A DNA stretch of 63,571 bases, filler included, from Collodictyon triciliatum (GCA_043381765.1; 5 parts of 5 records of this genome joined end to end with filler, not necessarily neighbours in it), one strand, 5' to 3'. Shown: positions 112-62,500, numbered from the whole stretch's first letter. Numbers and translations: made by a program. Notes: generated from the letters alone by a model not told the origin.

Positions 112-3100
112 CCTTGTTTCTGAGTGGAACCGCGCTGTATGTGATTGTTTTGGTGACTCCTGCTTGGGTTGGTAAATTATATACATAATCTCCGGATGTC
201 ACAGGCTGTTGTGTCTCAAAAACGCTTGTAATGTCATCCATCATATCCTACATTTCAGAAAATCGAAGAACGCTCATATTTAATGAATCCTTTTTCTTGT
301 CTATGTGGAAAAAACTTTCTTTCAAAGAATAGTAGATAATGTGTTAACCTTGTTCGAGGCACTCATCCAATCAGTATATACAATCTTTTTCATGTCTTCC
401 TCGCTCACACCAAGGATGGAATCTGGAGGCTTATTTGACGTGTAAAGCTTTCCGTTGCCTTTCAGATTTATAACCAGACTTGTAATACTTCCAAGAACCT
501 GAATGTGGTTAGATTCGATCAACAGGAAACCAACCCGAAAGCTTGACAAGTAAATATACATAGAGAAATAAGTATGCAATTTCCTGCTTCTTGGAATAAA
601 ATATCGTTTGCACATGATTTTTACTTGTTGCAAATGCGTCCTTGCTTTAATAGACTCTCCGAATGATATCGAGTTTTCGATCGCAACGCCTGCCTATGTG
701 ATGATATTTTTTTTGGCTGTAATTATTCATTCATCTTTGTGTAACATGATGAGTGTTAGAGTGTTTCATTTATATATGCGTTCTGTTGAAATGTGGCTTT
801 AAGACATACTTGGGCACTAAATGCCTGGAGAAGGTCCTCATCAACTTCATCAAACTTCTGCCCGCTTAACTGAGTCCAAGAAGTGAGACAATAGATTTGA
901 ATTTACATAGTGTTATTATTTTTTCAGTTGTATAAGACCTTTTGTTAAAGGAGGTAGTATCAAAGTCCAATCACAGGTAAATGAGCATTCACTAGATGTG
1001 GCAAACCCTACCTTATTAATCATCTGTGTCACACCAACAATTTTTTGCTGCATTGGATTAATGATTGGCATACATAAGATTGTTTTTGTTCGGTATCCTT
1101 TATGAAGAATATATTAGTTGAATCAATTTCTCACAACCAGTTACATATGATGCAAGGGGAAAGTTAACATCAACATGAATTTATAATATGCTTTGTCTAC
1201 AAGTTTAGTATAAAAAATGAATGAAAGAATAAAGGGATAGCTTATGCTGCAGAAAAATTCTCACCGGTCTTTCTATCTATTTCCGGATTGAAACGGGAGT
1301 CTTCATACGCTTCTGGTATATTTAGTGTTTCTCCTGATGTTGCGACATGGCCAGCTATACCTAAGTTCATAGGAAATCGAATTTCGGCTGCTCCTTCTGC
1401 TACCTGCGACCAAAGCTCTTTCCTCTCCTTTAAATTAATAGTATTGTTTATATCACCTTCGTCCATTTTTCTTTTCTTTTCTTTTCTTTTCTTTTTTATG
1501 GCAATATCTCGAATATTGTTAAATGATGTTAATAAAACCACCGGCTCCTCTTTTTTTTCTCTAATTTGATGTAAATAAAGTATTATCTTGATGTATTTGT
1601 TGGTTTATGATGCTATTCTATCGGCTATTCGAGTTATTCGTTTATACTTCTGGTGTGTATGTGTAATGTATACCTGGTCCACCAGGAATAACGTACATCG
1701 ATCTGCTTTCAGTAACTCTCTTGCCTTCTGCATGATAACTCGACACAAAGCCTGAGTACAAAATGTTTCAATGGATAAAGAGAAGCAGGAAACAAAAAGA
1801 TTTTTTGGATAATTCGACTGTGCATATTTTTTAAAAGAAAAAAGGTTTATCATGCCACTCAGCACCAATAACCTTAAGATTCAACTCTGATGAAAGTTGT
1901 CTTGATAACTCCAATATTACAGATATTCTATGTTGTGTTGTAACAGAGGCCTTGTACAGTTTTGCATTCCGAAGGAATACTCCTATGTTTTTTTGATGTA
2001 ATAAACTACTTAAAATGTGATACTTTAAGATTTTTTTTAACTACGTGATTGGTTAATTACAATTATATTCCCTATTATTTTGGTTAATGTCTTTGATACA
2101 TAGATAATTAGATGCAATCTAACCTGTTTGTGAAGCAATTATTTGAAGACATTGGTCATCAAGTGAATTAAATGGCTACAGACGAAGTTTCCGCGAATAT
2201 TTATTTTATTTATTTATTTTTTTTGCGTGGGACAAAGGAAATAATAGATAATCAGTTAAATGCTGTCTAGTTATTCTAATTATTTATGTCGATAATCACT
2301 AGCTTAAAAATGTTTATTATCTTTTGAATCAATATTACTTGATTTGATGGGAATCCGTCATGATTCAACTTATTGATGGCCTGAACAATCCCGACAACCT
2401 ACACGGAATAAAAAAACTGTTATATGAAATAATTATGCGTTTGTAGTATGTGCACGCTATACTAATTTTTCAAACTTTGAATAACATAGAGAATTATAGT
2501 ATGAACAATTGGCATCTCCTACTTTTCCGCTAACAGGGTCCTTGATGGGAGTGGAAAGTACACTTGTTATTTCAGAGCCAGAAAATGGCTCAATTTCATT
2601 TAAATATCTTGAATCCTTAAAAAGAAAAAATTAGAATATGATAAAGGGTTAAGTATGAAAAAATGTATAAAAAAAAGAGTACGTTTTTTATCATTATCAA
2701 AAGTAGTTTTATTGAATTATTTACCTTAGATGCATTGGGAGTATTCAAGCTTTTTCCTAACTGCAGTGCGGCTCCGGCTAACCCCTGAATAAATGACACA
2801 TTAGTATTTCAGAGAAATATTCAGAAATGACATGTTTAATGTAGATACCTGTCCTATCTGGAGTCGGATCTCTTTTTCCTCATTTTTGGTGTCTATCGAT
2901 ACCAAGTCTTTTGTAATATCATCAATTTCGTATACTAATGCACTGATGGAAAACAATAGTGAACAAATTAGTAAAATATATGGATTGTTTTAAATGTTAT
3001 TGAATGTAAAAAAAAATGTAGTTCCAATTAAATATTTTTTCCTTTTTTTTTATTCTTCCTTTCAATTTTGCGCAGGATGGTGAAAAATATTTTTTCCTTT

Positions 3101-4337
3101 ATTCAATTCAAAGGAAGGAAGGGTTGTTCCCATTAAAATATTAAAAAAAACTATCTTTTATGAAGCTAAAATATACCGCTCTGATTGAAGAAATCGACCC
3201 GCGTCTTCTGATATTTTATCCCTGGCTTTTTCTGCGCTTAGTTCCGCTGCGATGGAGGATGACTTGTTTGTCACTTGAAGTAATTTATTTACTTTCTGCG
3301 TGAAAATATTTTCTTAAAATTCATGCAATTTTTGCGAATAGTACCAGTATTAAGTATGAGTAAAACACGTGGCCATATCTGTATTAGATTTTGTATCAAT
3401 ATCAATTTTCTTTATCAACATAGTTATGTGTTGCTTAATTATTTGAAAGGGTGCCATCGATTTTATTCACGAGAATTGATTTCAAGCTATCGAAATACTT
3501 TAAAAACTGTGGCAAAATCTTCCATAATAGATTTTCGGGCATCCGAGGGGAGAAACTCCAATCTTCCAGCAAATTCCCTCTCTGACATTGTACCTGATAT
3601 GAGGTCCTTCGTTTCCACCCAAACAGAAAGTAAGCAAGTAAGTCAATGGGAGAGGAGGAAATCTTTGAGATATTTTAGGATTACAAGAATGTATGGCGAT
3701 GACGGAGAGTCATCCAAATAGCTTGGCCGGGCGTAGTCATATACAAAAACCCTGGAACAATTGCTATTAATGTTTTAAGTAACGAGTGTGATAAATAAAT
3801 TAAAAAGGGAATGATGAGATAAAATTAAAACTTTTTTCAATTAAAAAATTCCGTAATTATTAAATTCGAAAAGAAGAAAGAAAGAAAAAAAGGAAACTGG
3901 TAAACTCACACTTTAGGACTTTGCGCAACTCGTTCCTTTTTATATAGAGAATTATTAGTATTCGATCATACATCCGTTTTATTTATGAGCAAATAAATAA
4001 GAAATATAAGTTAGATGAAGCGCACCTTTCTTCTGGATTGTTCAGGAATGGCATCTGTAACCCTAGGTTCTGCCAATGGCGGTTGTTCTGCGTTATCATC
4101 ATCTAATTCAAATTGGTATATTTTAGAAAGAAATTGATGGAATTCTCTAAACTCTTGCAAGTGCGCAAATAGCATGTAACGAACTGCTTTTTTTCTCGTA
4201 TTTGGACGTTTTATAAATACTTTAGCGAAAATAATACCAAATCCCATTAACTTATTTGCAGCAAAAGACATTCTCCTTTCTCTTCTCACAGAAAAATCCT
4301 CTTTTACAACGTCTAATTGTGACTTTGCTGTGCTTGC

Positions 4338-4378
<41 letters not shown>

Positions 4379-4548
4379 AAAAAAAAATAAAAAATAAGAT
4401 ATTTTNNNNNNNNNNNNNNNNNNNNNNNNNNNNNNNNNNNNNNNNNNNNNNNNNNNNNNNNNNNNNNNNNNNNNNNNNNNNNNNNNNNNNNNNNNNNNNN
4501 NNNNNAAAAAAAATACTAATAAAAAAAAAAAAAATATGATTTCAAGAG

Positions 4549-4582
<34 letters not shown>

Positions 4583-6637
4583 AAGGAATGTGATGGGGTG
4601 AGAGGATTACATATGAGAGTCTAGTTGGCCAGATTTTCCCGTCTCAAAATGATATAATAATAAACTGAAGTTACTAAACTCGGTGTTTGTACTATTTCAC
4701 CTTTTTGGTCCACGCCCGGAAGTATTTGCACGCACTTTTGTGTTGGGCGCTGTCCTTTAGTTTCCCCTGGAAAGCCATCGAATGAATTTTTCTGTATGTA
4801 TAAAATATTTTTATCAGAATAATGAAATATAATTTGAATAATCATATATGTAGCTATGGTTTGACCAAAAAACGTGGTGTATTATTAAAAGTTATATATT
4901 TAGACTTATCAATTTAAATCTGAGTTTTAAGACACTTTGAATCGAATAAAGGAAAAAAATCTCAGTTTTAAGTAATTACCTTCTCACGAGGCTTTTTATC
5001 TCCTAAGATGGGAAGGGATGTATGGCTCGAAACGTTTGTTAATGTTGGTGATTTTGGTGCAGAAAGTAATTGAGAGTTAGTTTGGAACCCATTTGAGTAG
5101 GACTCTGTCCCATGCGACCGGATTCCTGAACCAGGCATAGGTGAAGAGACAGATATTGCTTTAAGGATTCCGTCCAACTGGATAGGTCCATCAGTTATTG
5201 ACTTTCGAGGACCCAGCGAGAAAGACATTCTCTACGAAACATATTGGGATTGTCTCAATTAGCGGAACTCAATCACTCTAGTTGCAGGTAAAGCATAAGC
5301 ATATGTTGATATAGGAAGAAAATGAAAAAAAAATATGGCGAGAATTTTATGTATGAATGTTCACTTATACGATTCATAAAAGTAAGGCAATCATACGTGG
5401 TTCGCTATGAGTGCTTCTCGCTGTTGTGGGTTGAGTGGCTTCCGTGGAGGACGTGGATTTCTATCGCTCTACAGTCAATAAAGTGCATAAATGGTTCACT
5501 ATTATTAAATCCAGCCGGGTTCGTTTTTAAGCATATTTTGTTGCGTATTACTATGGGCATATGTATCTATATATTGGAGAACAAGAATTTAAACACAGGT
5601 TAAATAAAAACCAACGATAGTGGCACCCTCTAAGGAAAACATGATAAAATACAACTGTAAAGAAAATTATAAAGACGCATTACAGAGTCATCTTCCGATC
5701 CAAAGTCATCGCTCGTACTTAATCTATCAGCACCTTGTCTTTTCCCTGATTTATCAAGACGTTTTGCTGTAGAACTTTCGGAACGTAGATTTGAAGTCTA
5801 CAGCAATACAAATGACGCTTTTGAGTATAGGAAATGACAAAATGAATCCTCTTTTTTTTTATAACTATTATTCACATACAAGTTTAACCAGAGCATTAGA
5901 GAGAAAAATGTAATCAGTTGTTCTATTTGGAAGTAAAATTATTAATTCGCCCATGCAATACCTTTTTTTCATCCACAACTCTACCAGGAGAGCGATATTT
6001 TGAGGGATGTCCATCATCAGAGGATGATAGATTTAAAGGCAAGGATGCTTCAAGGAGAAAAAAAAAAAGAAAATTGTTGACGTTATGAATAATGATATCG
6101 ATTGGCTTTAATGGCCATAACTATAGTGCTTTCAATAATTGGAAACCCATGGACATTTTCAAATACATATGAATTCATGTCCGATATAAGAAGATAAGTA
6201 ATCAATTGTATCAATTCCACTCACAACTAGCCATATCTGTATCGAATCTATAGGATATACAAGTTGACTTAATGTAGGTGATATTTGAGGGCATATATAG
6301 CAAATATAATAGAATGAAATATTGAAGAACTATCATCGTGATGTATACAAATCCATGAAGGATATACTATAGATATTAATATCAACATCAAAGATGACTG
6401 AACTTTGGCAGATATAATCTGACCATGTCTGTTGGGCGCGTCGTTTTACATGAGAAGAACCCACCTTATCTCACTCGAAACGTTGTCACAGCCACTTTTC
6501 TTCCAGGAATCAGTCAACAGTTGGTCTTTATATAAAAATATGAATCCATATTTACTTAGAGTCTGGACAGTTTTATATGGGTGTGCGCTTGTTTTCTCAA
6601 TAATTAATTCCCGTTGAAGAGTTTTTGCTTCTTCCAT
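112..6637 (-). CDS. Multi-exon GAF-GAF-PAS signalling protein (probably a nucleotide cyclase or phosphodiesterase; 3' end lost at the contig edge)
   Basis: GAF exons: [16 protein letters not shown] (~1680-1750), [52 protein letters not shown] (~1265-1420), [28 protein letters not shown] (~1012-1097), [15 protein letters not shown] (~810-870). A first GAF lies at ~2120-2950 (LVSIDTK...[18 protein letters not shown]...VGIVQAINK). PAS-like exons at ~348-498 and 112-246. Linkage of the N-terminal exons (3170-6637) is inferred from shared strand and GT-AG junctions. Confidence 0.75.
3037..3125 (-). mobile_element. Family A mini retro-insertion with a nested family B copy
   Basis: Core tttttcctttattcaattcaaagg at 3091-3114. 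Outer duplication gttccaattaaatatt (3021-3036) / gttcccattaaaatatt (3126-3142). Confidence 0.7.
3046..3084 (-). mobile_element. Family B mini retro-insertion (39 bp)
   Basis: Insert ttttttattcttcctttcaattttgcgcaggatggtgaa. Perfect 16-bp duplication aaatattttttccttt at 3030-3045 and 3085-3100. Confidence 0.8.
4932..4956 (+). mobile_element. Family A mini retro-insertion (25 bp)
   Basis: Insert acactttgaatcgaataaaggaaaa between aaatctgagttttaag (4916-4931) and aaatctcagttttaag (4957-4972). Confidence 0.8.
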
Positions 6638-18318: not shown

Positions 18319-19515
18319 ATGGTGAGTCGCGTGTTCATCAGTGTATCACAACCATTGAATCGAATAAAGGAAAAAATCAATGTGTCACAAAGAAAGCGTC
18401 TCTATGGCCCTCAGAGGCCTTACCTGCCACAACAGAGTCAAACTAACTCGCTCCTCAACCACCCCGAATCCAGTCGAAACCACGGTCAGCAGCCGACAAA
18501 CTCCCCATGGGCCAAAAAGAAGGCAAAAACTATGTATGGGCTGGCAAGCCTTCACTAATCTTTCCTTGTATATGGCCGCTAGTGCGCACATATTTTACGC
18601 AACGTGGCGACGGATGTTTATTTTGTTAAGCCTGAAAAATTGCCAAAGAAGTTCCCATGCGCCTTAACTTTAACCTGATTTATTTTTGTTTTCCTAACTT
18701 CATTGTCAGGTTCATGAGGACCGCATCCACGAGGTGGCTGTCAAATATGAGATGGAGAAGGCGAAGGTATGGGAGCGTGACTGGGGATTTCTACACGAGG
18801 AATATGTAAGGATAATATCTCCCCTTTACGATTCCTTTTTATAGCTTCATTCTTCTTTCAGTATTTCCTTCTACCTCTTTTTCTTTTTCTTTTCCTTTTC
18901 CTTTTCCTTTTTTCTTTTCCTTTTTTCTTTTCCTTTTTTCTTTTCTTTGTCTTTATCTTTTTTCTTTTTGGTATTTTTTTTTTGGCCATTCTTTGTTTGG
19001 GTATGATAGTATCTGAACCATCCTCCATCTTGGCATGCTGAGAACTCTTCCACCAAACTGAGAAGCAGACTAACTCCCCTTCATTCTGTGCATGCTTCCT
19101 TGGTAAACGGAAGGACTTTTTACACAGTGATAATGTTGCTCGAATAGGGTGGTGCTGCTCCAAAGAAGACTCACGACGAATACACCGAGGAGGAGCTGAA
19201 GAAAATGAAGAGCGCTACTTATGTAAAGGAGGTTTGTATTGGGGATTGTCTAAGTTCTTGACTGTTGGCATAAACTTTCCACGCCTTTTTTATGCTAATT
19301 CGAACTGTTGTTTTGATTTTTTCCTGATAAATACATCCCTTGCCTTCTTTTTCTTTTTTTTATCACAGTCTGAAAAAATCGGCAAGCTTCCTGCGCAAGG
19401 TGTCAGTCTTGAGGTCTTCCCAAACACAGAGCACCGTCGAAAAAAGATGGACTTATACAACGACCGCTTCGACGTCGAGTTTGACCGCCAGCGAAACGCA
19501 AAGTCAAGCAACTGA
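18319..19515 (+). CDS. CIMIP1/C20orf85 (LLC1 family)-like ciliary microtubule inner protein
   Basis: Four in-phase exons (18319-18321, 18710-18805, 19148-19231, 19369-19515) give MVHEDRIHEVAVKYEMEKAKVWERDWGFLHEEY...SATYVKESEKIGKL...SLE. The V-x-x-D-x-I...E...W-x-x-x-WGFL pattern is characteristic of this family. Confidence 0.65.
18352..18375 (+). mobile_element. Family A mini retro-insertion (24 bp) in intron 1
   Basis: Insert ccattgaatcgaataaaggaaaaa between atcagtgtatcacaa (18337-18351) and atcaatgtgtcacaa (18376-18390). Confidence 0.75.
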
Positions 19516-20146: not shown

Positions 20147-20246
20147 TTTTATGTGTCTTTTATGTGTCTTTTATGTGTCTTTTATGTGTCTTTTATGTGT
20201 CTTTTATGTGTCTTTTATGTGTCTTTTATGTGTCTTTTATGTGTCT
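20147..20246. repeat. (TTTTATGTGTC)n 11-mer tandem repeat at a contig end
   Basis: Same unit as the reverse complement of 63479-63571. Confidence 0.95.
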
Positions 20247-32172: not shown

Positions 32173-32214
<42 letters not shown>

Positions 32215-32238
32215 TTTTTTCGTTTTTTTTTTTTGGTT

Positions 32239-32338: not shown

Positions 32339-32594
32339 CCTTCCTTCCTTCCTTCCTTCCTTCCTTCCTTCCTTCCTTCCTTCCTTCCTTCCTTCCTTCC
32401 TTCCTTCCTTCCTTCCTTCCTTCCTTCCTTCCTTCTCAGTATGTGGTGGTGCTCATTTTATTCTATTAATGACTTCAATTTTCGCTTTTCTTTCTTTTAA
32501 GTATTTCATTTTCAAACAGATACCCAGCAATATTCGAATAGAACTTAGGAGAACATAAGCCCACTTACTTCTTCATTTTCCCCATTCGCTGTAG

Positions 32595-34184: not shown

Positions 34185-37100
34185 GGAAACTATACTATGT
34201 GTGTGTTCGCACTGTACCTCGCTCCACTGGCCAATCTGTGTTCTTTTCAATGGACCATGAGCTTACATATATGCGCTTTTTCAATGACTTTGGCCCGCTG
34301 AATCTCGGTCAAACTTATCGTTTTTGTGTTACATTACACCATAAGATTAAAGTATATTTCTTTCGAATAACTTTGCAATCAAAGGGCCACAGATAATTAG
34401 ATACGATTCTTAAGTCCAAGTTGCAATTGCATTCAAATAGAGTTGAATCATAAAGCATCTGATTGATTTTCATGCAAAGGAAGCAGGTGGCAAGCCCTTG
34501 TACTACTATACCGGCCACGAACCACAAAGACGTGCAAACATCGCGTGTCTCATTAGCATTTATTTGGTGAGTTTTTTTCATATTTGATTTCTTCATGGCA
34601 TAGTAAAATCTTATTGCCATCCTATACTCAATATATCCAACAATAGATATATTTGACTCAGAATTTCTTCTCTTTTTTTCTTTTTCCTTTTAATACTTTG
34701 AGCAGGTCCTCGCACTAGATTATGAACCTGAGGATGCTTTTGCGCCTTTTATGAAAGCACATGCAACTTTTGTCCCCTTTCGTGACGCATCGATGAATCC
34801 GTCCACTTTCAACCTCACCATCATTGATTGTTTGCGAGCTGTTGCAAAAGCAAAGCGAAATGGATGGATAACTATGACATCCTTCAATCTTCAAGAGTGA
34901 GTGGGCTTTATGATTATAACGATTACGACCCCTTGACAAAAAGTGTGAATGAGGATTAGTGTAAAATTGTATTTGAATAAAGAGTGATCTACAAAAACCA
35001 AATAAAAATAATCCTGAATACATTAACATACCTTAAGGTTTGAGTACTATGAAAAAATGGAAAATGGAGACATGAGCTGGGTGCTCCCAGGCAAGTTCCT
35101 GGCGTTCAGTGGCCCTCAAGCGATGTCCTCAAAAGCAGCATTTCGAACACATCCACCTGGTTTTTAAATATTGATTGTTCTTTCATTTTTGTGGAGATTT
35201 TTTTGTCCATACAATCACATGAGGCTCTATCTATGTCAATATTCGTAAAGAAGCTAGGAATTCATATTATGTCTCCTTTCTCTAGAATTTTATGTTCCAA
35301 GCTTCAAGAAGCTCGGTGTTAACACCGTCATCAGATTGAATAACAAATGCTACGATAGAAAGAAGTTCACAGATTCGGGTATACTCTAAAACTCGATGAA
35401 TTCACTATTTCACAACTGCATTTAAATTATATTTTCAAGCCCATACTTCTTAGTAGACTAATAATATAATACAGGAATATCACACTACGACTTATACTTT
35501 CCAGACGGTAGCACCCCGAGTGATAGTATCCTGGCTCGCTTTTTAGAAATAGCTGAGAAGGATATGGGTAACTGTCTTCATCTTTTGAATCTGTCATGTC
35601 CCCTGATTTCCCTTTATTCTATCGTTTTTTATATTTTAGATTTGAGTATATATTTTTTTCCTTTATTCGATATATTAGATTTGAGTATATGAATATTGCA
35701 TGAAATTAGGGGGGATAGCCGTGCATTGCAAAGCTGGCCTTGGTAGAACAGGAACATTGATTGCGTGCTATATAATGAAGCACTATCGTTTTACAGCCCA
35801 TGTAATCCTTTCATACTTGAATATGTCCAAGTCGTATTGTTCATGATATAAATTGAAGAAGCCCCCTCATATTGTCCATCTTATAACTAACCTTTTGGTG
35901 TGCAATTATGACTCATTTTTGTGTATTGTACCAAATGATACAGGAAGCAATCGGATGGCTACGGTTGTGTCGCCCGGGAAGCATAATTGGTCCACAGCAA
36001 CATTTTTTGCAAGGGTATTGTAATTTTTGCCTCTTATATATCTCGTAGTGCTCCCTTTAAGTTTGCACCAAATTGAAAATCGCATGGTGTTTTCCTATAT
36101 TAACTAATATTTAAAAAATACATCCTTCTCAATTCTACACATTCTAAAATATGACATGCACTTTCAATCAGAATGCAAACCAGACTATGGAAAATGGGTA
36201 AGTTGAGACAACATCATATCAAAACCAAAAAGAAGGATAAAATTTTAATGGTTTATTTGTTAGGTGAACTCACAAACCCCGATGTCCTTCCTGGTAAAAT
36301 ATGACCTATATATTGGATAGACTTTGATCATTATTATTTTTACTATTATCTTATGAATTTATTTGTGCTGTCAAATCATTAATTCAATAATCCCCAACCA
36401 CCTTTGTATGTATCTGCAGCGGAGAAAGAAAAGGAAAAATTGGTTAGTAATTTTGGCATGTGGATTTTTTTTTGTGTCTCTCAATTTGTGCTTATTTCTA
36501 TCTCTTTGTCTCTCTTAAGTTCTCAATCTTGTCAACAACAGACCCCTCCTTCATCTGCACTGAACGACGCAGGCAAAAAGCAAAGCAGTCTTACTCAGGT
36601 TCCTGACACATCTGCATTTTTTTGACGTTGTATATGATTTTTCCCCTTTATTCAATTCAAAGAGACTTTGTATATGGTAGTTCATATATGAACAATTCCT
36701 TTTTTCGTAGCTCTTTGATGATTATTCTTTCCTTCCACCATCCGTTTCGAAAAAGTCTTTGTCCTCGTCCATGAACGAATCTCAGATGCCAAAAAGAGGT
36801 ATAATTGTGCATCGCCAAAGTATTCATAGATTATTTCCTATCCACATCTAACTCCTTTTTTAGGACACTTTAATAGTTTTATCAACACAGAATAAAATAA
36901 AGAAACTAATGAACTCATTCTTAGAGCTGACATCACCATTAAGCATCCACAGTTCAACCTCGTGAGTCACAGAAATCTTCTTTTTTTTCTATTTTCATTA
37001 AAAGTATTTGTTATCTCATAAAAAATCGTTTAGATTATCTACAAGTGCAAAGTCGGATTCTCTCCAGTATGATATACGAAGAAGCAAAGAAAACACTGGA

Positions 37101-37260: not shown

Positions 37261-38353
37261 CGCTAATCTCTTAATTTTTTTTTACGGTATCTAATTGCGA
37301 TTTTGCAAAAATGTAGTAATAAAAGTTATTTCTACTATAGTTTTCAAACATCCATGGTCGGACGCCCGAAGCCTAGTTTTGAGGCTATATCGACAGTATC
37401 GGCATCGAGAAGCGTGTATGTTTCTTATGTCGCAAATTATGGTATTGCTGTTTGTGTTAATTTTTTCAATTTGTGTCAGGTGAAGTACATCCTGAGTTGG
37501 TTTCATCTTTTTTTCTATACATCGTATATAACTGAAAACGTGAGGTTGTACTTTAGCATTCTTTGTTTGATGATGCGGTTATACATTTTATAGGTCTGTT
37601 CCGTACCGAGGGAGACCTAGACAGAGTGCATTTGCAGGCCCTGAGATCTATGGAAGATCTTAGCGGCTTTTGCAATCCTTGCACGAGTTTAACTCTTCTA
37701 TTATTCATAGCGATTCTATCAGCTTATCAGAAGAAACAGAAAAGAAAGGTCATTTATTATTGACTCATCCGACCATCCATATTGGTAAATAAAACTTCAA
37801 GTAAGCTATTAAATTTTGTTGTCACTTGCCTATGTATTTTAAAAAGTAACTTAAGAAAGGGGGAAAAACGTAAGAAGCCATTCTGCTGCTATAGCTGCGA
37901 AAGTGAGATGGCGTTGTATGACCTTTCCCTGACCTTCCTTAATGTATACTCTTGTTGTAAGGTGGTCAAATAAACTTCATCGCTCGTGCTTCACGTTGCG
38001 TAGCAAAAATATCTAGATTGTTGGGCGTCTTTGGACTATCGAGTTCGGGGCGATATCCTTTTTATGGAACCAACGTCGGATTGATTATTGGCTATTTGAG
38101 AAAACACTTAAGAGTAGCGTATCTTTCGAAAGAGAAAAAAAAATAATCATTTGGAGACGGTTTTTGCATTACTTATGTCTCACTGATTCTCTTAAATGAA
38201 GAGCCCTTCCGCCTATACTTCACAAGCGAAAGCTATGTTGCTCATTCGTTACCGTAGTAGCCATTCCTGGACATCCCTTCTTGCATCCTCGGACTCCCTC
38301 CTACGCTTGTCTACAACGCCTCTTTGATTATTTATTTTTCTTCATTGGCAATA

Positions 38354-38401
<48 letters not shown>

Positions 38402-38412
38402 AGCGCAGTCAG

Positions 38413-38436
38413 TCCCTTGAATGGAATAAAGGGGGG
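38413..38436 (+). mobile_element. Family A mini retro-insertion (24 bp), intergenic
   Basis: Insert tcccttgaatggaataaagggggg between aacatagcgcagtcag (38397-38412) and aacatcgcgcagtcag (38437-38452). Confidence 0.8.
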
Positions 38437-39426
38437 AACATCGCGCAGTCAGCAGCTTCCAAAAACAACAATAATAATGTAATCTAATGCCTGTGGGAAA
38501 AGGTCACGTTATTGTGCCGCGTCGCCCCATCCTCACTCACCACCACATAATTGCGTAGGAGCTAAAGTCCTATATACGTTTGTTAATTCTTTGGCAATGT
38601 AACATCAATAGTATTAAATACACATAAATATGCTAAATGTATGTAAAAAATAAAATTATAAATGATTCAAAGTGAACTATGGTGAGGTAAGAATAATATA
38701 GTATATTTTCCACATATAAAATCAAAGGAAACCTATTAATAGAACGCTATTTTTAGCTAAAGTATAAAAATAGATTCCGTTGAGATTTATGTGGGCAAGC
38801 AATAAAATCAATTTATGCGTTCACACGAGGCTATTAATAGCATTTTCTTGTTCTTGGGGCTGAGGGCCAAAAATAGCCCCAAAGTCATGGTCATAAATAT
38901 CCCCAAGGCAACCGGAACAGCAAACGGGGCCGCTCCAAACCCAATCGTGTTATCTACACTGCCCGATTGAATGGAGATTTGTGAGCTACATAACTGATCT
39001 AAATATAAACATGATGTCGATGGTGGACTCACCGTAATATATATAGGAGCAGTGCCAGACAAGGGCGAGTTGGATGTGCTGGTGGGCTTTGCTTCGAGAT
39101 GGACAAACACAAACACAAACACAACAAACATCCCCGCAGTGGAAAATGTCACCTTCGCAATCTCCTGTGACAGCAGTTGGATTTTACAAAGCATCCGCAC
39201 ACGAGATATCAAAACCTCTGATGACCCGATCAAATTTCACATGCCATGTCGCTCAAAATTTGAATATAAGATAGAATAAAGTATTATAGTGAACATACCC
39301 ATGAAAAAGCTAAATATTGCGAAGCCTTCATACTCTAACCATAACAATCATATCCTCGGCAGTGCGGTAGGTTACAAGGAACTACAGTGCGACACAAACC
39401 AAGCTAAGAAGAAAAGACACCCAAAG

Positions 39427-40612: not shown

Positions 40613-42293
40613 TTATTTGGTTTTCTTCGCCGAGGGTGTCACATTTTTTTTAACCGTCTTTGGTGTCTGTTTGACAGGTTGTGGGGACTTCTGACCCTTC
40701 GGTTCATTTGGAATTTCAGTCTTTTCTGAATTATGTTTTTGCTTCTGCTTTTTCTTTTCTACTTTCGCTGGTTCTTCTTCTTCTTCTTCTTCTTCTTTCC
40801 TCTTTCTCGAAGATTGTAAGTCCTCATTAACGGGGAACGATTTCGCAAGAAACTCACGAAAGGACGTCAGTTTGTCATCAGAGTCATCGAATGGTGTTGA
40901 CGGTATGAGTTTTGGCAGGTTGCTAGAGAATAAAAAGGAGATAAGAAAGAGAAAAATAGTTTAAGACATTATTGAAACCAAAATTTTATGGCAGGAAGAA
41001 AAATATGTAATCTCTAGTATTTATGACCAAAGTCAACATCCCCACCAACCTGCACAAAATTGAAAGGAAGAATTAAAAAAAAAGAAGAACGTATTTAGAT
41101 GATTGGCATGTATAAATATGACTCTAGCGAACCTTCCAATCAGCTTCAAGCTGTATGCTATAGAAAAGCATTCTTGAAAGACTCTCATTCCTTCGACATC
41201 ATCGGCATCTGGTTGACATTTATTTGCCGTCAAAAAATGCTGGACTAACTGAATGACCTATTATCCAGGTGTTTGTTTAAGGCAAAAAGAAAAAAAAAGA
41301 AGAAAGAAAAAAAAAGGAGTGATGGAAGAAGTGATGAGTATACCATGAATATCTTTGAAAAGAACATAACAATTCCAATCGTGAGGATCAATCAATGGAT
41401 CAATACCCTCTCTGATGGTAAGCTCAAAGCTGTCTCCAAAAACTGGTTCAGGTCTCGTATCTCTGAGCAATTGGAACAAACAGCCTAAAAAAACAGTGAA
41501 ATAATATGTTCATAAAAATTATAATAGGCAGTGATTCAGATATTGCGTAGAACTGATGATGCTCACCACGATTCGAGAGAGGGAAAACTTCTTTGCATGA
41601 AAATCTAGATCCCAATCGGTTGAAAATCGGAAGCGAGTATCTTGTTGGGCAGCCTATATAGAAAGATAGGCAAATAAATATTAAGGCAGGCGAGCATTAT
41701 CATTTCTGATTGGTTCAAGAGGAGGTAAAATACTCATACCCCATCAACAAAACAATATCCTGGAACTTTGCAAAAACTGCAGTGGGTGATCTATGAATAT
41801 TTGGAATTAATCATCGACTGAATAATTATATGACATGAGGCAACTCTAACAAAAGTAGTATACAGCGTATGTTTTTAATTAAGGAATCATAATACTAATA
41901 CTAATAAATATTGGAACCTGCTTCCCACATTGCAGGATGAGCTCTGTAACCTTCGCGTGATCCTCCACAGCAAACAGATTCAACAAAAGTGAGAGAAAGT
42001 CTTCCGAGTCAAGGACATAGCCGCGTGGCGCGATCAAAGGCCGCAGATTTGGGGCAAGGCTCTGCTTGATGTCAGTAATTCAGATGAGTTAGAAAAGAAG
42101 AAAAAAGATAGAAAAAAAAAGAACCCTACACAGCCCATTGCCAGCAGAAACAGCCTATCCTGTCCGCAAGAACTTTGGATGCAAAAGACTGTTGTTTTCC
42201 TTTTTTTTCTTTCTTTTTTGTTTTGAAAAATAAAACGATTTTCACCTGAAGTCGCTGTTGCAGCTTATAGCACGTGTCTTCCACCGATCCCAT
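40613..42293 (-). CDS. Zinc-binding protein with a degenerate HNH-endonuclease-like fold and Lys-rich tail
   Basis: In-phase exons give MGSVED...FCWQWASLAPNLRPLI...HCSFCKVPG...FSTDWDLDFHAKKFSLSRIVAVCSNCSEIRDL...HFLTANKC...FQECFSIAYSL...KRKEEEE..KKKQKQK..KKTK-TAA. Confidence 0.55.
41034..41083 (+). mobile_element. Family B mini insertion, intronic
   Basis: caacatccccaccaacctgcacaaaattgaaaggaagaattaaaaaaaaa, near-identical to 48383-48425; TSD not clearly resolvable. Confidence 0.7.
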
Positions 42294-43328
42294 CCTATGT
42301 CTTTGTACGCCAGGTTAACTTTTTGCTCTTCCCAACAGTCCAAGCAACTTGCTTCTGATGCAGACAGAGAAAACTTTTGACGACAGTGGGCAACATAGTG
42401 GAAGAACAACGAAACAAAAAGGCGAGAAAAGACCACGAGTTACGGTACTTATTTCATCATACATTATTTATCAAGACAAGTCGTGTTTTCTACTACATCG
42501 CCTCTGCAAAAGCGACCAAAACAAAGATTCAGTTTATAGCGAGAGTATGCCGAGGTAGTATGAGGCGGTGGGACAGGGTTGGGAGTAGGTCTATGAATCG
42601 AAAATCGGAGCAAGCTTTTCTCTCCAAAATAATATGGACATGGCTCGCAAGTCCATTTATGAATGGATATAAGAAAGGAAGTAGAGAAAAGAAATAGTTC
42701 TTCAATACCAAGAACCTGTCGGCATGAATCCGAAATTTAACAAGGTGGCCATTAAAAAAATAGCATATATACAGGACACATTCCCACTTCAGTTAAGCAT
42801 TGTTTCTACCGGCCGGGCATGGCCCCGAAACCATGAGTCAGTCAAGAGTTACCTCTCGATACAGGTCGAACGATAATATATTTTTCTTTCAGGGTTGTCC
42901 AACGAGAAATATCAAGAAAGTTACCCGGTTGTCTCCTAAAGACATAGATCAAATATAATGAAGTATGGTTTAAAAATTCTCGGAGGCGGACAGTGAAAAG
43001 AATTCGTCCGAATATATATCGAGAAGTAACTGCCATTTGTATACCTTCATCAACCCCGAAAACTTAAACTGTTCTCCTCTCAATCCCTACCCAAACCACG
43101 TGGTGCGTTGGAGTTTAACCATCAAAGGTAGAATAGTTGGCCTGGGAAAGTACTTTCTCTCCCGTGTACTTCACTGTATTTATTTGTATATACAAGCAAG
43201 AGTACCCGTGCTTCGCAGCGGGAATGGGAAAAGAAAAGAAAAGAAAAAAAGAAAAGAAAAAAAGAAAAGAAAAAAAAAGAAAAGAAATCACTGAGGAATG
43301 AATCAGAGTAACTAATACTCAGCACTAT

Positions 43329-43350
43329 TTTTTTCCTTTATTCGATTCAT
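43329..43350 (-). mobile_element. Family A mini retro-insertion (22 bp) with an empty paralogous site
   Basis: Insert ttttttcctttattcgattcat between ctaatactcagcactat (43312-43328) and ctaatactgagcactat (43351-43367). The paralog has a single ccaatactgaacactat at 58293-58309. Confidence 0.9.
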
Positions 43351-43420
43351 CTAATACTGAGCACTATATTCGTACTTATCTTGCTGCCCGTGGGTCGATG
43401 GCTAGAGCTCGCTCCGTCTT

Positions 43421-43452
43421 TTTTTTCTTTCCCTTTATTATTCGTTTCAAAT
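43421..43452 (-). mobile_element. Family A variant mini insertion (32 bp)
   Basis: Insert ttttttctttccctttattattcgtttcaaat between agctcgctccgtctt (43406-43420) and agcttgctccgtctt (43453-43467). A decayed version is present in the paralog at ~58420-58470. Confidence 0.7.
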
Positions 43453-44373
43453 AGCTTGCTCCGTCTTATTCATAGGTTGTTATACTCACGGGTTGGTGTA
43501 GCCGGTGTCTTGATCGTCGGTGTGTTTCGGTGCATAACATGTGTTGTAAAGGATGTGGTAAAGAGACCTTTTCGCTCTCTGAGTCGGCTGTGTCGGCCTT
43601 TTCAGTTTGCGTTCGGTTGGTAGGCATTCCATGGGGCGGGGCTGTGGCGCCGGTCTCCTGGTAGGCGGTCTCGTCCTTCTGGGATCGCTCTTTCCGAGAC
43701 CTTGCTTGCTTTTTGTTTTTGTTTTTTTTCGGCTTCAGAATGAGGCAGCTGGAGAGAAGAAGGAAAGAACCCCAGTGTAATAATATTATTTTCTGGGGAA
43801 TGTGTCTTTTGTCTCTCCCAGTGAGATCGTTTCTCTGCAAAAGGCTTTTTCTTATCCATTTTGTTTTTTTATTTTTCCTCTCGACTCTGTCTGTTAGTTT
43901 GGTCACTACACTTATTCACATTTTGTGGTGTAGAATATATCGATCTTTGGGACTTTGTCTCACGAAAACAAAGCAAACAAACGAACTTGGCCTGCAAGTT
44001 TATTTTTTCCATTGGTATTTGACATTAATATCAATCATGGCTATTGATATCAGCTATAATTAAAACAATCAAAATTGAAAATCGTGCATGTTAGATAGAT
44101 GAAAAGATTCGACAGAGTCAGACATTACACATGCAATCCCAACGATTAGATGCGATTGGCCAAAGTTTTTTTTTTTTTTTTGTATTTTGTTTATGTCCAT
44201 CGTTGTTGTTCTTATTTTTCTCTGTGCCTCCTCCTTCAATCCTCCTCAAGCGCCATCTAGTCACCATTCTGTGATTTCCAATCATCAGCTGTTTTGTCTT
44301 TTCATCCATTCATCCAATCATTCTTTTCCTTCTTTTTTTTTCTCACGACTTCAAAAACCCATCGCCCCAAGTT

Positions 44374-45430: not shown

Positions 45431-49393
<3,963 letters not shown>

Positions 49394-53627: not shown

Positions 53628-54812
53628 CGCCGATCCAACCGGATCCCTGTCGTGCCCCTAGGAACACGGCAGAAGGGCCCGGCAGCCAAAGAGCGGGCTC
53701 CCTCCCCTCCCTGCCGGGCCAGCCCAGCCAGCCCTCTCTCCCTCTCCTCTTCCCGCCTCCTCTCTGCATCTCCTCCCCTTCATCCAAAAAACTAACACAT
53801 AGCCTCGTGACAACGTCCCGCCATAACCCCGGCGTGACTATCTCCTCCCAGCTGCCTCCCCGGCCACGCAGTCTGCCCGTCTCTTGCCCGCCTCGCTCCC
53901 CCACCAAAGCGCACAATGCAGAGACGGCGACTGTGGCTCTCCCGATGCCCCGCCCTCCTCAGTCTCTCTCTCTCTCCCTGTACCCATCCGGCCTCTATCG
54001 CCCCCTTTGATTATCGTTCTGGACCATCCTCCGCGGAGGGCGATACGCGAATAAAACACATATCACTCACCCCTCTCCTGAGAACGACGCGAACCAGTGC
54101 GAGTTGGGCAGAGGTCATCTCATCCTGGCCAACCGCCCCTCTGGGAACCCCGCAAGAGCAAAAGGAAGATACAGAAGGTCCGAGGAGCAGGGGAGACGGA
54201 TGCAAGCTCCTCCCTTTCTCTTTCCTTTTTTTTTTTGTATTTTTTCACTTCCAGAAGCGGATAGTATGCTGAAAGGGTGCGCCGTTGGTTCCGCTGTTTT
54301 CTTTGTGCTCGCGGTTTGGGGCTCTTCCGTTTGATAATTGACAAGTTTGAAGCCAATTTTTGTTTTGTTTGGTATAGTACTGTTTTGTTTTGTTTTGTTT
54401 TGTTTTGTTTTGTTTTGTGAGCTGGCAATTGTGTGTGCGTGTATTCAATGAAGAGAAGTCTACAAAACCTCAACAAGTACAATGATGGCGGCAGCAAATC
54501 CGTTCACGTGTTTCTTTTCTTTGTGTCTCACTTTCTTTTGGGGTCCTGCGTACAAAAGCAGCGTGCGCGTTGATGAACTGTCTCCTCCCGTGCTCTTTTT
54601 TTTTTTTTTAGTTCGTTTTTTTCTTCTTTCTTTCGATCTTGTCGCTTCAGCGATGCTTCAGAGACTGAATGTTGCAAGAAGTTGCACACCTGCTCATGAC
54701 CAAAATAACAAACTTGCACAAATCGAAAGGAATAATTATAATAAGAATACACCGCATTTACATTCAAGAAAGCCATGGCCATCCCATGACTCATAACTCA
54801 ACTATGCGCATT

Positions 54813-54844
54813 TCTCTTTCCTTTCTATACATTCGATTCAAGGC
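54813..54844 (-). mobile_element. Diverged family A-like insertion
   Basis: tctctttcctttctatacattcgattcaaggc between degenerate repeats ctcaactatgcgcatt and ctcactgtccgcagtt. Confidence 0.45.
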
Positions 54845-55247: not shown

Positions 55248-55342
<95 letters not shown>

Positions 55343-55409
55343 TGACTCTGCATTGTCAAATCATGACATCATTCTAAATACGATGGGCATGATTTGCATT
55401 TACCAACAG

Positions 55410-57570: not shown

Positions 57571-57647
<77 letters not shown>

Positions 57648-58274
57648 GGATTCATTTGAACAATTAATTGATAAAAAAAAAGAAAAGAAACCACAAATAA
57701 ATAAAGCCGAGGAAAATGCCTTCGCCTCTAGGACAAGGAATGAGCTGTGGACAAGACAGTGGGAAAACCCCGGATTTTGTGGTTGGAGGTTTTGTGTTTT
57801 GGGTGGAAAGAAGAGAAAAGAAAAGAAAAAAAGAAAAACAAGATAGGAATGAGAGAATATGTTCTCACACGCTGACTTTTCTACCCAAAGTGAATCAGCT
57901 CCAACGCGATTTCTGGTTGTATTCGAGACTGACAGGAGAGCGGATAAAGTTGTCGGGTCGATGAAAGTACGCACATGGCAGTTACTTCTCAAATCGATTC
58001 CGACGAGTCCTTTCAACCATCTATCTCAGACAAGATTTACATCCTATTTCATTCCACTGCATGAGTCTTTTGAGGGGACAACGGGTCACTTTCCTTACGT
58101 TTCTTGCTGTGCGACTCAGATAGAAAGCGACACATCGTTGTTTGTNNNNNNNNNNAGAAAAGAGAGAGAAAAGAGAGAGAAAAGAGAGAGAAAAGAGAGA
58201 GAAAAGAGAGAGAAAAGAGAGAGAAAAGAGAGAGAAAAGAGAGAGAAAAGAGAGAGAAAAGAGAAGATAAACGG

Positions 58275-59085
58275 ATGAACGAATCCTAGCAACCAATACT
58301 GAACACTATATTCATACCTATCTTGCTACCTGTGGGTCAATGGCTTCAGCTTGAATCATATAAACCCTTTCTCCAGTAGCTTCTTGCTCCCTCGCTGCTC
58401 GTGAGTTGATGTTTTGTTGCCTTTTTTGCTCCCCTTAATTATTATTATTATCATCATTCGTTTCAAAGAGCTCGCTCCGTCTTATTCATAGTTTGTTGTA
58501 GTCACAGGTTGGTGGTAGCTGGCAACCTGTTCTTCGGTGTGTCTTGGTGCATAACCTGTGTTGCAAGGGATGTGGTCAAGTGACCTTTTCGCTCTCTGCG
58601 TTGGCTTCGTCGGCCTTCTCGGTTTGCGTACGGCCAGTAGGCATTCATTGGCGCCGGTCTCCTGGTAGGCGGTCTCGTCCTTCTCGGAGTCGCTTTTTCC
58701 GATCGCTTGCGTGTTTTTGTTGTTTACCTTTTTTTTCGGGTTCAAAATCTGGTGGGTTGAGTGAAGAAGGAAAGAAAGAGCGCCAGTTTAATAATATTAT
58801 TTTTTGGGGAATGTGTCTTTTTCACTCCCAGTGTGCTTATTGTTTTTCAGCAACGGAGACTATTTCTTATTCATTATGTTTTTTTCTTTATTGCTCTTCT
58901 CAAGTCTCTCTCTCTGTGTGATCACCTTATTTATTCGCGTTGTGAGGTATAGAATATATCGATTTTTGGAAAAATCCTTGGCACAAAGAAACAAAGAAAC
59001 AAAGAAACAAAGAAACAAAGAAACAAAGAAACAAAGAAACAAAGAAACAAAGAAACAAAGAAACAAAGAAACAAAGAAACAAACA
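58275..59085. repeat. Dispersed ~0.7-kb repeat, copy 2, ending in (AAAGAAAC)n
   Basis: Collinear with 43295-43985. Confidence 0.85.
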
Positions 59086-59572: not shown

Positions 59573-62500
59573 TCATGATTGAGTGATTTGGGCGATATCA
59601 TTTGAGGTGCGGATGATTCTGGGGATACTCACTTGGGTTGGATGAGAGCCTTTAAGTGAATATATATTTGAGTATAGCGATGACTTAGGCACAGTTACCG
59701 GGACAAAAATCAAAATCAAAATCAAAATCAAAATCAAAATCAAAATCAAAATCAAAATCAAAATCAAAATCAAAATCAAAATCAAAATCAAAATCAAAAT
59801 CAAAACAAACAAACTTATGTATGAAGCAAAAAAATAAAATAAAAAATAAATCAAGATGAAAAACTGGGTTATCTTAAACCCTAAGGTTATTTCATCAATT
59901 TGCATACCTGTCTCGATTAGATGCTGTCTCCAACGCGCGAACGAACCTGGTGGAACGACTATAATTTCAACAGGCATTATGGAGCCATGCTTACGGAGAT
60001 TTCCGTACTCTTTATTCTGCTGGATAATTGCATTGTCTAGTGTATCTCGGTCCCTGTCATTTATATATGGCCTTGGTTTTTCTGTGTCAGCATATGGGTC
60101 ATTTGGGGTGTCTATTTCAAGAAAAGCAACATAATGTGTTGATTTTGCCGAGTTATCAACCAAGGAGGAATAACAAAACGAGAAGTCCTTGATTATTCGC
60201 CCGTCCTGAGCCCAATCCAATTCAAGACCATCTATCGCCTTTGTTATCTCATTCTCTGTGACTTTCTCTCCTGCCATTGCCAGATATTCAGATACTCTGT
60301 AGAGAAACTCAACCTTCAAAGCCTGAGCAAGTTAACATTAGCAAAAGAAATTGCAGACACATAAATTACAGATACCTATTTGGTGTGGAGCAGAAATAGA
60401 ATAGTGGAAAAATCAAAATCAAAATCAAAATAAAAAAAAAGCAGAAAAAGTCATACACAAATAAATTTTGATTTTTTTTAAAACAATCACCTGATTCATA
60501 TGATTTTGAACTTTTACAACCTCTCCCAGCCTACAACGATATAATCCTGAGCTATTGGTAAGAACAAGTTCGTATGCCTCATTTTTCTTAGTTTCATGTC
60601 CAGCCACTACGATAGGTGCCTCTTTGTTGATATCAGATTCTGGTATGAACTCAAAGAAATTTGTCTTGAAATCAAGCACAAAAGTCTTTTCCGAAGGCTC
60701 GTAATTTAGCTGATGTTTCAGATGCCATATGAATATGTGACAATAAATTGATAAATTAAGAAATATTCATGGTTGGATGATTATAAATTCTTTGAATTTT
60801 TTTAAATAATAGAACATCAAATAGTGTACTAACAATTCTTTCAAGTTCAAAGGAAGTAATTGTGGTTGTAAGAATTTCAACTTTTACACGGCAGGCATGT
60901 AATGGGTAAAAAATGGCCTACCGCAATCAATCCTTCAGGAACATGATAGCAAGTTGATATTATCGGCAGCCCACGAATATATTTCTTGATTAGTTTCGTT
61001 CGATAAAATGCCTGGTCTCCCGTATCATTTGTTATAACTGCTTTTAAACTTGGCCAAATGCGGAGGATTCCACGCCCACTTCCGTACCCATCGCAGCATG
61101 TAAAGGCAGTTGAGAGCTATCAACATATTTTGAACATTTCTTTTCTTTTAAAAAATGAAAGGCCTCAATCAAATAGTTTTGTAATTAAGAAAATTATATA
61201 CTATCATGCTGTTCTTCATGCCCGAGGCAAAATTGAAATTTTTTTTGTCATCTTTTGAAAAAAGTCGCTCATATGCAAATAACAGGACTACATCACAAAG
61301 TTACAGACCTTATCTAACTCGCTCGCTCTTGCTGGGTCAGGTTGAATGAGTATCTGCAAGTCTTTTCGTAATTTTTCAGAAATATTGACTGTTTCCGATA
61401 TGGTTCCATTACGTATATCTTCAACAAGGGATTTCCAATGTCGCTCGAGGTCCATGAAAGCATAGTATAACCCGCTAGCAGTATTGCTCTGAAATAGCAC
61501 CCATGTTAATTTCGCTTGCAAAATGTATACAAAAATGATTTGAAATAAATCTTTCGTAGTTATACTATCGATTATTTGATTTCAAGATGATTTCAAATTC
61601 TTTTCTATGGCTCTAACCTCTATGAATGACAACTGTTTGTCTCTCAAAGCAAAAAGAAAGTGAAGGTAATTAGCGCTGGGCTCATCTTCCACTTGACCAA
61701 TAGTCGAGGGTGATGTGTAGAAGCTCAACAAAAAATCAGAGTTGGCTATTTCATGACGTCATAGTTTTTAGATGAAATATTCTGCTACTTTGAATCAAAT
61801 AAAGGAAAAAAAATATTCTGCTACATCTCTGCCAGGGACTTCAGGACTTTAAAGGATGAATTTTTTTTTTTTGGAAAATAATGAAAGATAGATAGATAGA
61901 TAGATCAGTTAATAAATTGCAAAAGATACACGTAGATCTAATCGATGTGACATTTTAAAAATTTAACACAAAAATACCAGGTGATCTACTGTTCGGGCCA
62001 GTTTTCACACCGGCTTTAGAGGTGGTCAAGTTAGTGTTGTAAAAAAATCGAAGAGATTTCTTTAATTCGCCTTTAATTACAGGAAAGGCTTTTACAGTGT
62101 TTATATAAAGCATTATGTTTTCAGTCATAAATGCCTCCTAATTAATATATTTGTATTTAAACTAAGTCTCACAAATATTTATTTAGCGATTGAATATCAG
62201 TATTCAAGAATATTCTCAAATTAAATTAACGTATTTCCATGTTGGTTATGGCTTTTTTTTTTATTTTTACATGAAAGGCTTATCAAATAGTTAAATGGAG
62301 AATCTTGATTACCAATGCAGATGTGAAGGTAACTGGAACCATTCTCTTGGATCCATCTGATTCTCTGGTTGTTACAATCTGTGCAATTGCATCGGCAGAT
62401 AGGATGTTTTGGGAACCCTTATCGATTTTTTCTATGGCAGCCTGTTATTTAATTTGATTTGTAAACTAATTTGGAGAGTCATATAAAATAAAGTTCATGT

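Follow-up and report, generated by a model that had tools for sequence, protein, structure and literature searches.

Family A in the genome of Collodictyon triciliatum (GCA_043381765.1) is a set of very short A-tailed insertions, each clear copy of which is flanked by its own target-site duplication. These inserts are probably retroposed copies produced by target-primed reverse transcription (TPRT), with a length set by the template and an enzyme coming from an unseen LINE. Their length clusters tightly, one of them has a matching empty site, another carries a nested insertion, and their nick sites are biased in sequence. The window, by which we mean the whole stretch of DNA analysed (63,571 nucleotides with filler), amounts to 61.7 kb of fragmented assembly, consisting of five contigs with internal gaps, and long repeats could be under-represented in it.

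Dispersed copies of family A

Nine clear copies of the form ...TTGAATCGAATAAAGG+(G/A)n were found on four of the five contigs, four in plus and five in minus orientation. They confirm the A-tailed inserts that an earlier examination of the sequence alone (hereafter the sequence-only reading) had located there, and its estimate of one copy per 6 kb also stands for this window, where about 10 copies were counted over 61,744 non-N bases. With at most one mismatch, the core GAATYGAATAAAGR matches eight times against 0.35 expected, the maximum over 100 shuffles being two.

Four copies lie on the plus strand. Copy 4932-4956 (site 4916..4972) combines 18 templated nt, 3 extra 5' nt and A4, between the two halves of a 16-nt duplication with one mismatch (4916-4931 and 4957-4972). 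Copy 18352-18375 (site 18337..18390) has a 19-nt core, A5 and a 15-nt duplication with two mismatches. The 20-nt core of copy 38413-38436 (site 38397..38452) ends in a tail made of G only; its duplication is 16 nt long with one mismatch, and its nick site comes directly after a 41-nt T run. Copy 61789-61810 (site 61775..61824) shows a 17-nt core, A5 and a perfect 14-nt duplication.

On the minus strand, the longest copy, 3091-3125 (site 3021..3141), has a 30-nt core followed by A5, and its duplication (3126-3141 and 3021-3035), a 15/16-nt repeat, shows one mismatch and one indel. The shortest copy, 35652-35669 (site 35631..35690), has a 10-nt core, a tail A7T and a 21-nt duplication with one mismatch; this parse, an 18-nt insert with a 21-nt repeat, fits best and replaces the insert 35652-35674 initially delineated. 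A decayed motif-like stretch adjoins this copy at 35607-35625. Copy 36637-36663 (site 36624..36676) comprises 18 templated nt and 1 extra, with a tail GGAAAAAT after AAAGG and a 13-nt duplication with one mismatch. Copy 43329-43350 (site 43312..43367) has 15 templated nt, 1 extra and A6, within a 17-nt duplication with one mismatch, and copy 43421-43452 (site 43406..43467) is an older variant, TTTGAAACGAATAATAAAGGG..., with a 15-nt duplication and one mismatch.

Target-site duplications and nick sites

The direct repeats bracketing the nine clear copies measure 13 to 21 nt, a wider range than the 13-17 bp first proposed, and are mutually unrelated. For eight copies their lengths are 16, 15, 21, 13, 16, 17, 15 and 14 nt, with 8 mismatches over 127 positions. 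The claim that every insert has its own repeat holds for these nine clear copies and does not extend to the diverged copy (54811..54844, minus strand): a decayed 13/14-nt repeat abuts both of its ends, with two mismatches and one indel, and scores no higher than background.

A repeat score of at least 9 was reached at six of the seven motif sites scored in the window, versus 1 of 49 chance motif matches in unrelated contigs, and at 18 of 481 random window positions; an excess of flanking repeats over control motifs is present in this window. These controls were the only use made of matches to the 20-nt pattern in public collections (39 loci in metagenome contigs, 23 in prokaryote genomes, 0 in viral contigs), which are single chance matches lacking flanking repeats. 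An unbiased scan for repeats of at least 12 nt, 12-120 nt apart, returned 17 pairs: seven bracket family A, one consists of two neighbouring cores and nine are unrelated. A stricter scan retained four short A-tailed inserts, whereas none came out of any of the 10 shuffles.

Of 10 insertion events, nine gave a duplication that begins with A (p 1.4e-4) and six one that is preceded by T (p 0.053), a start bias that resembles the L1-type nick site. Copies 4932, 36637 and 43329 also bear 1-3 unmatched extra bases at their 5' junctions. All inserts are polar, and no terminal inverted repeats are visible in family A. An origin other than reverse transcription, whether as a miniature DNA transposon, as repair-templated filler or as an artefact of assembly or amplification, would accommodate the fact that RNA and reverse transcriptase were not observed, but is very hard to credit. 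A DNA transposon should end in terminal inverted repeats and duplicate a target of constant length instead of one varying between 13 and 21 nt; filler DNA would be copied from sequence nearby, whereas here a single conserved motif recurs on four contigs; and the polar, A-rich tail and the T|A-biased nick site speak against this whole group of explanations.

Empty site and relative ages

Copy 43329 can be compared with a site lacking the insert. In a paralogous segment on contig 5, a single 17-nt target (58293..58309, plus strand) leads directly into the shared flank, and the alignment gap of 39 nt equals exactly the 17-nt duplication plus the 22-nt insert. This empty site is a paralog, not an allele. 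Copy 43421 has a decayed counterpart in the contig-5 paralogous segment (58436..58469, minus strand); since both flanks are homologous, its insertion is older than the segmental duplication, whose paralogs share 72% identity. Age agrees with sequence: copy 43329, the younger, shows the consensus core, and copy 43421, the older, is diverged. Family A was active both before and after the segmental duplication. An artefact is excluded by the substitutions within the target-site duplications and by the insertion of one copy before a segmental duplication of this divergence. The paralogous segment itself has no preferred reading frame.

A nested insertion and a second family

Copy 3091 turned out not to be bracketed directly, as had been described, because its tail is interrupted by a 39-nt insert (3046-3084) of another family, family B. 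This nested insert has its own perfect 16-nt duplication (3085-3100 and 3030-3045) and entered at GAAT|AAAGG, a T|AAA site. A template-switch chimera was considered for the composite at 3021-3141 and rejected in favour of nested insertion, which sets this locus apart from chimeric retrocopies.

Two other family B copies lie on the plus strand. One, at 41034..41085, reads CAACATC...CACCAACCTGCACAAAATTGAAAGGAAGAATT followed by an A run and has no convincing duplication; the other, at 48381..48425, is located inside an (AAT)n microsatellite, so that its duplication is unreadable. Family B copies measure 36-46 nt plus an A run. Their 3' module, TTGAAAGGAAGAATAAA, is related to that of family A, which probably points to specific recognition, and family B has probably been mobilised in the same way.

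Insert length and tails

The templated lengths of the nine clear copies are 30, 20, 19, 18, 18, 18, 17, 15 and 10 nt. With six of nine at 17-20 nt, they do not form a random truncation series: under a model of geometric truncation, p lies between about 4e-4 and 1e-3, in a post hoc calculation on nine copies with a single long reference copy. The tight, ultra-short length noted by the sequence-only reading accordingly holds in the window, including its count of seven copies of 22-27 nt when its own boundaries are used. Instead of a continuum up to kilobases, lengths cluster, and no family A copy exceeds 35 nt in the 61.7 kb. Screening for A-tailed elements with duplications up to 8 kb yielded one 14-nt pair, 2,044 nt apart, where shuffles yield 0-4. 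At the other extreme, no poly(A)-only insert was seen among 32 A/T runs of at least 10 nt, and the family tail occurs in none of the 12 short-gap pairs examined for very short fillers between repeats.

These lengths bear on the possibility, which we consider rather unlikely, that the inserts are extreme but ordinary 5' truncations of an autonomous LINE whose longer copies exist and are missing from these contigs. On this view each insert would be the terminal bases of an element kilobases in length, with copying usually cut short by the enzyme or by host repair. An A run placed immediately after AATAAA is typical of the 3' ends of LINEs and mRNAs, and family A ends in this way; one copy extends to 30 nt, 5' ends differ among copies, and the assembly is fragmented into five contigs with internal gaps. 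What disfavours truncation is the concentration of six of nine lengths within 4 nt, improbable under the geometric model, together with the lack of both shorter tail-only inserts and copies above 35 nt in the window. Moreover, family B has a different typical length, and contig ends and gaps abut simple repeats (microsatellites or homopolymers) rather than the family A motif. Should there be a LINE that shares this end and whose copies span all lengths without a break, family A would be an extreme but ordinary example of 5' truncation.

Two origins had been offered for the short length, an enzyme that nearly always aborts after about 20 nt and a tiny RNA template. The copy that reaches 30 nt implies that template length is not fixed at about 20 nt and, taken with the 36-46 nt of family B, makes the stop look template-specific. 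The first proposal is weakened by this, and a template-set length or a very short template is favoured.

Tails are very short (4-8 nt). Their A run spans 4-7 nt in seven of the eight tabulated copies; one tail consists of G alone, and two have a terminal T. Such very short, G-only or T-ended tails are unusual for fresh poly(A)-primed copies. A terminal hairpin as a strong structure was dropped as a candidate: it is weak, only the longest copy folds (35 nt, -5.8 kcal/mol, z -2.0, with 9 of 200 shuffles folding too), and most short copies do not.

Search for a source

Pfam detected no transposon domain, be it of a reverse transcriptase, an APE endonuclease or another kind, in the 48 of 108 ORFs of at least 100 aa that were scanned. 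Likewise, the window contains no longer element sharing the family A 3' end, no source gene ending in the family A sequence, no tRNA gene and no Rfam match. It does include a GH3-like ORF, for which no homologues of greater length turned up, and gives no signal of an alternative genetic code. As to taxonomic affinity, the search yielded only a transcriptome protein with 50% identity. Part of the stretch was found in five of the seven sequencing runs listed, none of which is listed as RNA. In titles and abstracts of the literature, no retroposons of this size are described, and the motif strings appear in no paper at that level.

We regard it as improbable that the inserts are tiny processed-pseudogene fragments, mobilised in trans from the 3' ends of one or two abundant host transcripts, either mRNAs or non-coding RNAs. 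The AATAAA signal and A tail do fit an mRNA 3' end, and two different sources, A and B, have been copied. LINE-mediated processed pseudogenes and chimeric retrocopies similarly arise when a polyadenylated 3' end is mobilised in trans, and they too have target duplications. If any mRNA could be used, however, many different short A-tailed inserts from many genes should be present, whereas our scans find only family A and one B, that is, one or two specific dominant sources. The related 3' module of A and B, pointing to specific recognition, and the lack of a source gene with such an end in the window add to this argument.

Proposed mechanism

The retroposition that we favour can be outlined as follows. 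An L1-like (APE-type) endonuclease would nick the bottom strand where the sequence is T|A-rich, and the freed T-ended 3' end would anneal to the short A run of an RNA whose 3' end reads ...(CC)TTTGAATCGAATAAAGG(A)n. Copying would cover the last 17-20 nt alone (range 10-30), and a second, staggered nick 13-21 nt away, followed by repair, would create the duplication. The length would be set by the template and not by random fall-off of the enzyme, in one of two ways: either the template is a very short RNA comprising little beyond a 3' recognition module, or copying halts at one preferred place, the 5' arm of the weak terminal hairpin. The enzyme would be provided in trans by an unseen autonomous LINE. 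We infer the RNA intermediate, the reverse transcriptase and the nature of the template.

A more specific version is that what moves is a stand-alone RNA, about 20-30 nt long before its few A and so comparable in size to a small RNA, consisting only of the 3' module that a LINE enzyme recognises. Family A would then be the smallest retroposon family described and belong to a class that includes family B. We propose this only tentatively, and think it is rather less probable than its opposite.

Comparison with known systems

Family A shares with L1-type TPRT an A-rich tail, variable duplications of 13-21 nt, T|A bias, extra 5'-junction bases, both orientations and nested insertion into an A-rich tail. 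Retroposons dependent on an APE-type element typically have duplications of about 7-20 nt that differ from site to site. These marks, together with the empty site, agree with the sequence-only reading, which had attributed the inserts to TPRT by an APE-type element. Family A departs from the L1 type in its tails of only 4-8 nt, sometimes G-rich, and in that no coding element is seen. In addition, 5'-truncated L1-type copies show a broad spectrum up to kilobases, whereas the templated part of family A covers 10-30 nt, most often 17-20.

Like SINEs, family A is dispersed, non-coding and A-tailed, has target duplications, and is probably recognised via a 3' module, here common to A and B. Unlike them, it has no room, in a unit of 10-30 nt, for a tRNA-, 7SL- or 5S-derived head and an internal Pol III promoter. 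Platy-1 of the marmoset, at about 100 bp, has been described as the shortest SINE known from primates (PMC4864456); family A is 3-5 times shorter than this element, the sole SINE length used for comparison. MITEs also are small, abundant and non-coding, with direct repeats at their flanks; family A differs from them by its lack of terminal inverted repeats, its polar A tail and a duplication length that is not fixed.

Implications

The dated copies make up a small natural time series, with one copy older and one younger than the segmental duplication, and the nested insert adding a third relative date. If the template truly measures about 20 nt, it defines how little RNA a LINE-type enzyme requires for inserting DNA, and such a minimal template bears on the long-standing question of 3'-end recognition and the origin of SINEs. 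A template of this size would also show that genomes can hold thousands of mobile inserts below the detection of repeat finders. Each insert brings AATAAA and an A-rich, endonuclease-prone tail, and could thereby give rise to polyadenylation sites and to new hot spots of insertion. Should the reading as a stand-alone RNA be true, the genome of C. triciliatum would be spreading a whole class of micro-retroposons missed by standard repeat finders.

Family A copies and their flanking repeats

The core of family A (GAATYGAATAAAGR), the ultra-short A-tailed inserts that end in an AATAAA-type module, occurs 8 times in the window against 0.35 expected. All nine copies listed by the sequence-only reading are present, 4 on the plus and 5 on the minus strand; we name them by start coordinate. 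Eight have a simple structure which, in sense orientation, comprises a target-site duplication around a short insert: copy 4932 (duplication of 16 nt with 1 mismatch, insert of 25 nt), 18352 (15 nt with 2 mismatches, 24 nt), 35652 (21 nt with 1 mismatch, 18 nt), 36637 (13 nt with 1 mismatch, 27 nt), 38413 (16 nt with 1 mismatch, 24 nt), 43329 (17 nt with 1 mismatch, 22 nt), 43421 (15 nt with 1 mismatch, 32 nt) and 61789 (14 nt with 0 mismatches, 22 nt). Mismatches affect 8/127 positions of these eight duplications. Copy 3091, which carries a nested insert, is treated separately. A profile of the nine copies recovers all nine and then a diverged copy at 54811-54844, below which rank only weak matches (58436, 6622, 50140 and 35607).

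The enrichment of flanking repeats implied by that reading holds against several controls. In an unbiased scan, direct repeats of at least 12 nt were sought at spacings of 12-120 nt; once low-complexity pairs were removed, 17 pairs remained, of which 7 bracket a family A insert, 1 corresponds to two neighbouring family A cores and 9 are unrelated; it missed copies 18352 (two mismatches) and 3091 (an indel). When an A tail was also required, four short inserts were found, compared with 0 in each of 10 shuffles, and the sole long candidate, with repeats 2,044 nt apart, lay inside the shuffle range (0-4). As an outside control, the 20-nt family A motif was sought in metagenome and prokaryote contigs, giving 62 chance matches with 49 distinct flank pairs: a flanking-repeat score of at least 9 was reached at 6/7 window sites versus 1/49 chance matches, and at 18/481 random window positions. 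Separately, a perfect 15-nt direct repeat (TGCAGTTCGTGGGGT) at 10639-10701 (+), with 33 nt between its arms and within the ORF 10226-10681, has no A tail and is unrelated to family A.

The single CpG is the most variable position of the core, its variants being mostly transitions: three copies have T (T is seen, for example, at 3091, 36637 and 50140), one has A on the opposite side (61789) and one has G (38413). With a CpG observed/expected ratio of 0.84 in the window, this could be a sign that cytosines in the copies, or in the genome, are methylated. Two stretches, 22260-22300 (-) and 30960-30986 (+), contain ATGGAATAAAAAAAAAA, similar to the GGAATAAA portion of copy 38413 with a long A run behind it; neither showed flanking repeats, and chance or another decayed variant could account for them.

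An empty site in a paralogous segment

Segments 43217-43986 of contig 4 and 58196-59008 of contig 5 are paralogous (72% identity over 830 columns) and, as no reading frame is preferred, probably non-coding; an inverted match also links 42883-43161 to 57851-58126. In a global alignment exactly 39 nt are missing from contig 5, the combined length of the insert (22 nt) and duplication (17 nt) of copy 43329. A single copy of the target is present at 58293-58309, a precise empty site for copy 43329. Copy 43421, its neighbour, is common to both paralogs; the contig-5 version (58436-58469) is decayed, and the sequences to either side of it are homologous. Family A thus inserted both before and after the segment duplication, in agreement with the consensus core of copy 43329 and the status of 43421 as the most diverged copy.

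Genomic setting and search for a partner element

The five contigs, 63,571 bases in all, are joined by artificial spacers (44 N, TTAATTAATTAA, 44 N) at 7238, 20247, 32239 and 55148, and also contain internal N gaps. The source organism is eukaryotic and its introns are ordinary: between 26953 and 29115, a gene with a Roc domain aligns to a transcriptome protein in five pieces separated by gaps of ~100-140 nt. Public sequencing runs with parts of this sequence come from coded organisms and from freshwater or subsurface metagenomes. Cyclin, GH3-C and ankyrin domains were also found; the window has no tRNA or Rfam matches, and nothing in it points to a variant genetic code. Of the 108 ORFs of at least 100 aa, 48 were scanned and most of these have no Pfam match, so that the lineage looks poorly sampled among eukaryotes; the two longest, 14104-16347 (-, 747 aa) and 23844-25475 (+, 543 aa), are among the unmatched.

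None of these 48 ORFs carries a domain of a reverse transcriptase, an endonuclease or a transposase. Wherever the motif occurs, its duplication lies at most 35 nt upstream, and hence the window contains no long element with the family A end. The motif is absent from contig ends and gaps, where microsatellites and homopolymers are found instead. Long simple repeats adjoin the contig ends and most of the internal gap edges shown (for example 1-90, 4340-4405, 13000-13260, 20160-20246, 32174-32238, 32339-32440, 38352-38396, 48295-48530, 51600-51800 and 55248-55343), including (AGACA)n, A/T runs of up to ~45 nt, (GTTT)n, (CCTT)n and (AAT)n. Such repeats are unusually plentiful in this genome and probably limit its assembly. 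Abstracts in the literature disclosed no retroposons of family A size, nor was the motif found in any paper.

A nested insertion and a second family

We dropped a reading of 3021-3141 as a two-part chimera, as a perfect 16-nt repeat (3030-3045 and 3085-3100) around the inner 39-nt insert, 3046-3084 (-), indicates a nested insertion. This insert represents a second family, B, made of TTCACCATCCTGCRCAAAATTGAAAGGAAGAATAAA and an A run, sometimes with CAACATC in front, and it entered the tail of copy 3091 at GAAT|AAAGG; the two arms of the copy's own duplication (3126-3141 and 3021-3035) differ by one mismatch and one indel. The family B sequence is found again at 48390, in a copy that spans 48381-48425 (+) inside an (AAT)n tract, and, with mismatches, at 41041, in a copy that spans 41034-41085 (+); a diverged relative lies at ~29190-29229 (+). 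One family B copy has no clear duplication. Family B measures 36 to ~46 nt ahead of the A run and has a 3' module similar to the one in family A. Copy 43421 looks intermediate between the two families, as does the 29190 stretch.

Mechanism of insertion and length of the copies

The first base of the duplication is A in 9/10 events (p = 1.4e-4 at 30% A) and the preceding base is T in 6/10 (p = 0.053). L1-type endonucleases make a T|A nick, and the observed bias fits such a nick. Family A tails are short (A4-A7, sometimes after an extra G; one is G-only and two end in T). We consider it very probable that family A arose by a staggered-nick, A-tail-primed process, that is, target-primed reverse transcription (TPRT) by an enzyme acting in trans; the process agrees with L1-type retroposition in every feature testable in the window. 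DNA transposition, repair filler and artefact, even jointly, retain only a minute probability, because the inserts have no inverted ends, their duplications vary in length and have accumulated substitutions, and the tail is polar. Nor is the unit a SINE, since SINEs by definition have a small-RNA-derived head and family A has none.

With the longest copy as reference, templated lengths (the copied core without the tail) are 30, 20, 19, 18, 18, 18, 17, 15 and 10 nt, 6/9 falling within 17-20 nt; the 5' junctions of copies 4932, 36637 and 43329 have 1-3 unmatched bases. A geometric fall-off model, conditioned on which lengths are detectable, gives a tail probability of 4e-4 to 1e-3; the test is post hoc and uses few copies and a single reference. 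In the window the lengths do not follow the usual series of truncations, and a long LINE RNA truncated at random is a possible but doubtful source. Shorter family A products are not hiding in the window: flanking repeats were found at 0/32 A/T runs of at least 10 nt, and a tail fragment in 0/12 repeat pairs 0-14 nt apart.

The sequence-only reading had proposed TPRT with tightly clustered short lengths, both supported in the window. Family B copies of 36-46 nt and the 30-nt family A copy weaken its suggestion that the enzyme nearly always aborts after ~20 nt. Within TPRT we favour a length determined by the template, which could be a very short RNA with little beyond the 3' module or could impose a fixed stop just past that module. 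A source in the 3' ends of host mRNA seems distinctly improbable. The preferred 5' end falls in the 5' arm of a predicted 8-bp hairpin, which is within reach of the 35-nt copy alone (-5.8 kcal/mol, z -2.0; 9/200 shuffles fold likewise), which we regard as a lead only. As an observation family A is well supported, and it bears on the question of the minimal template.
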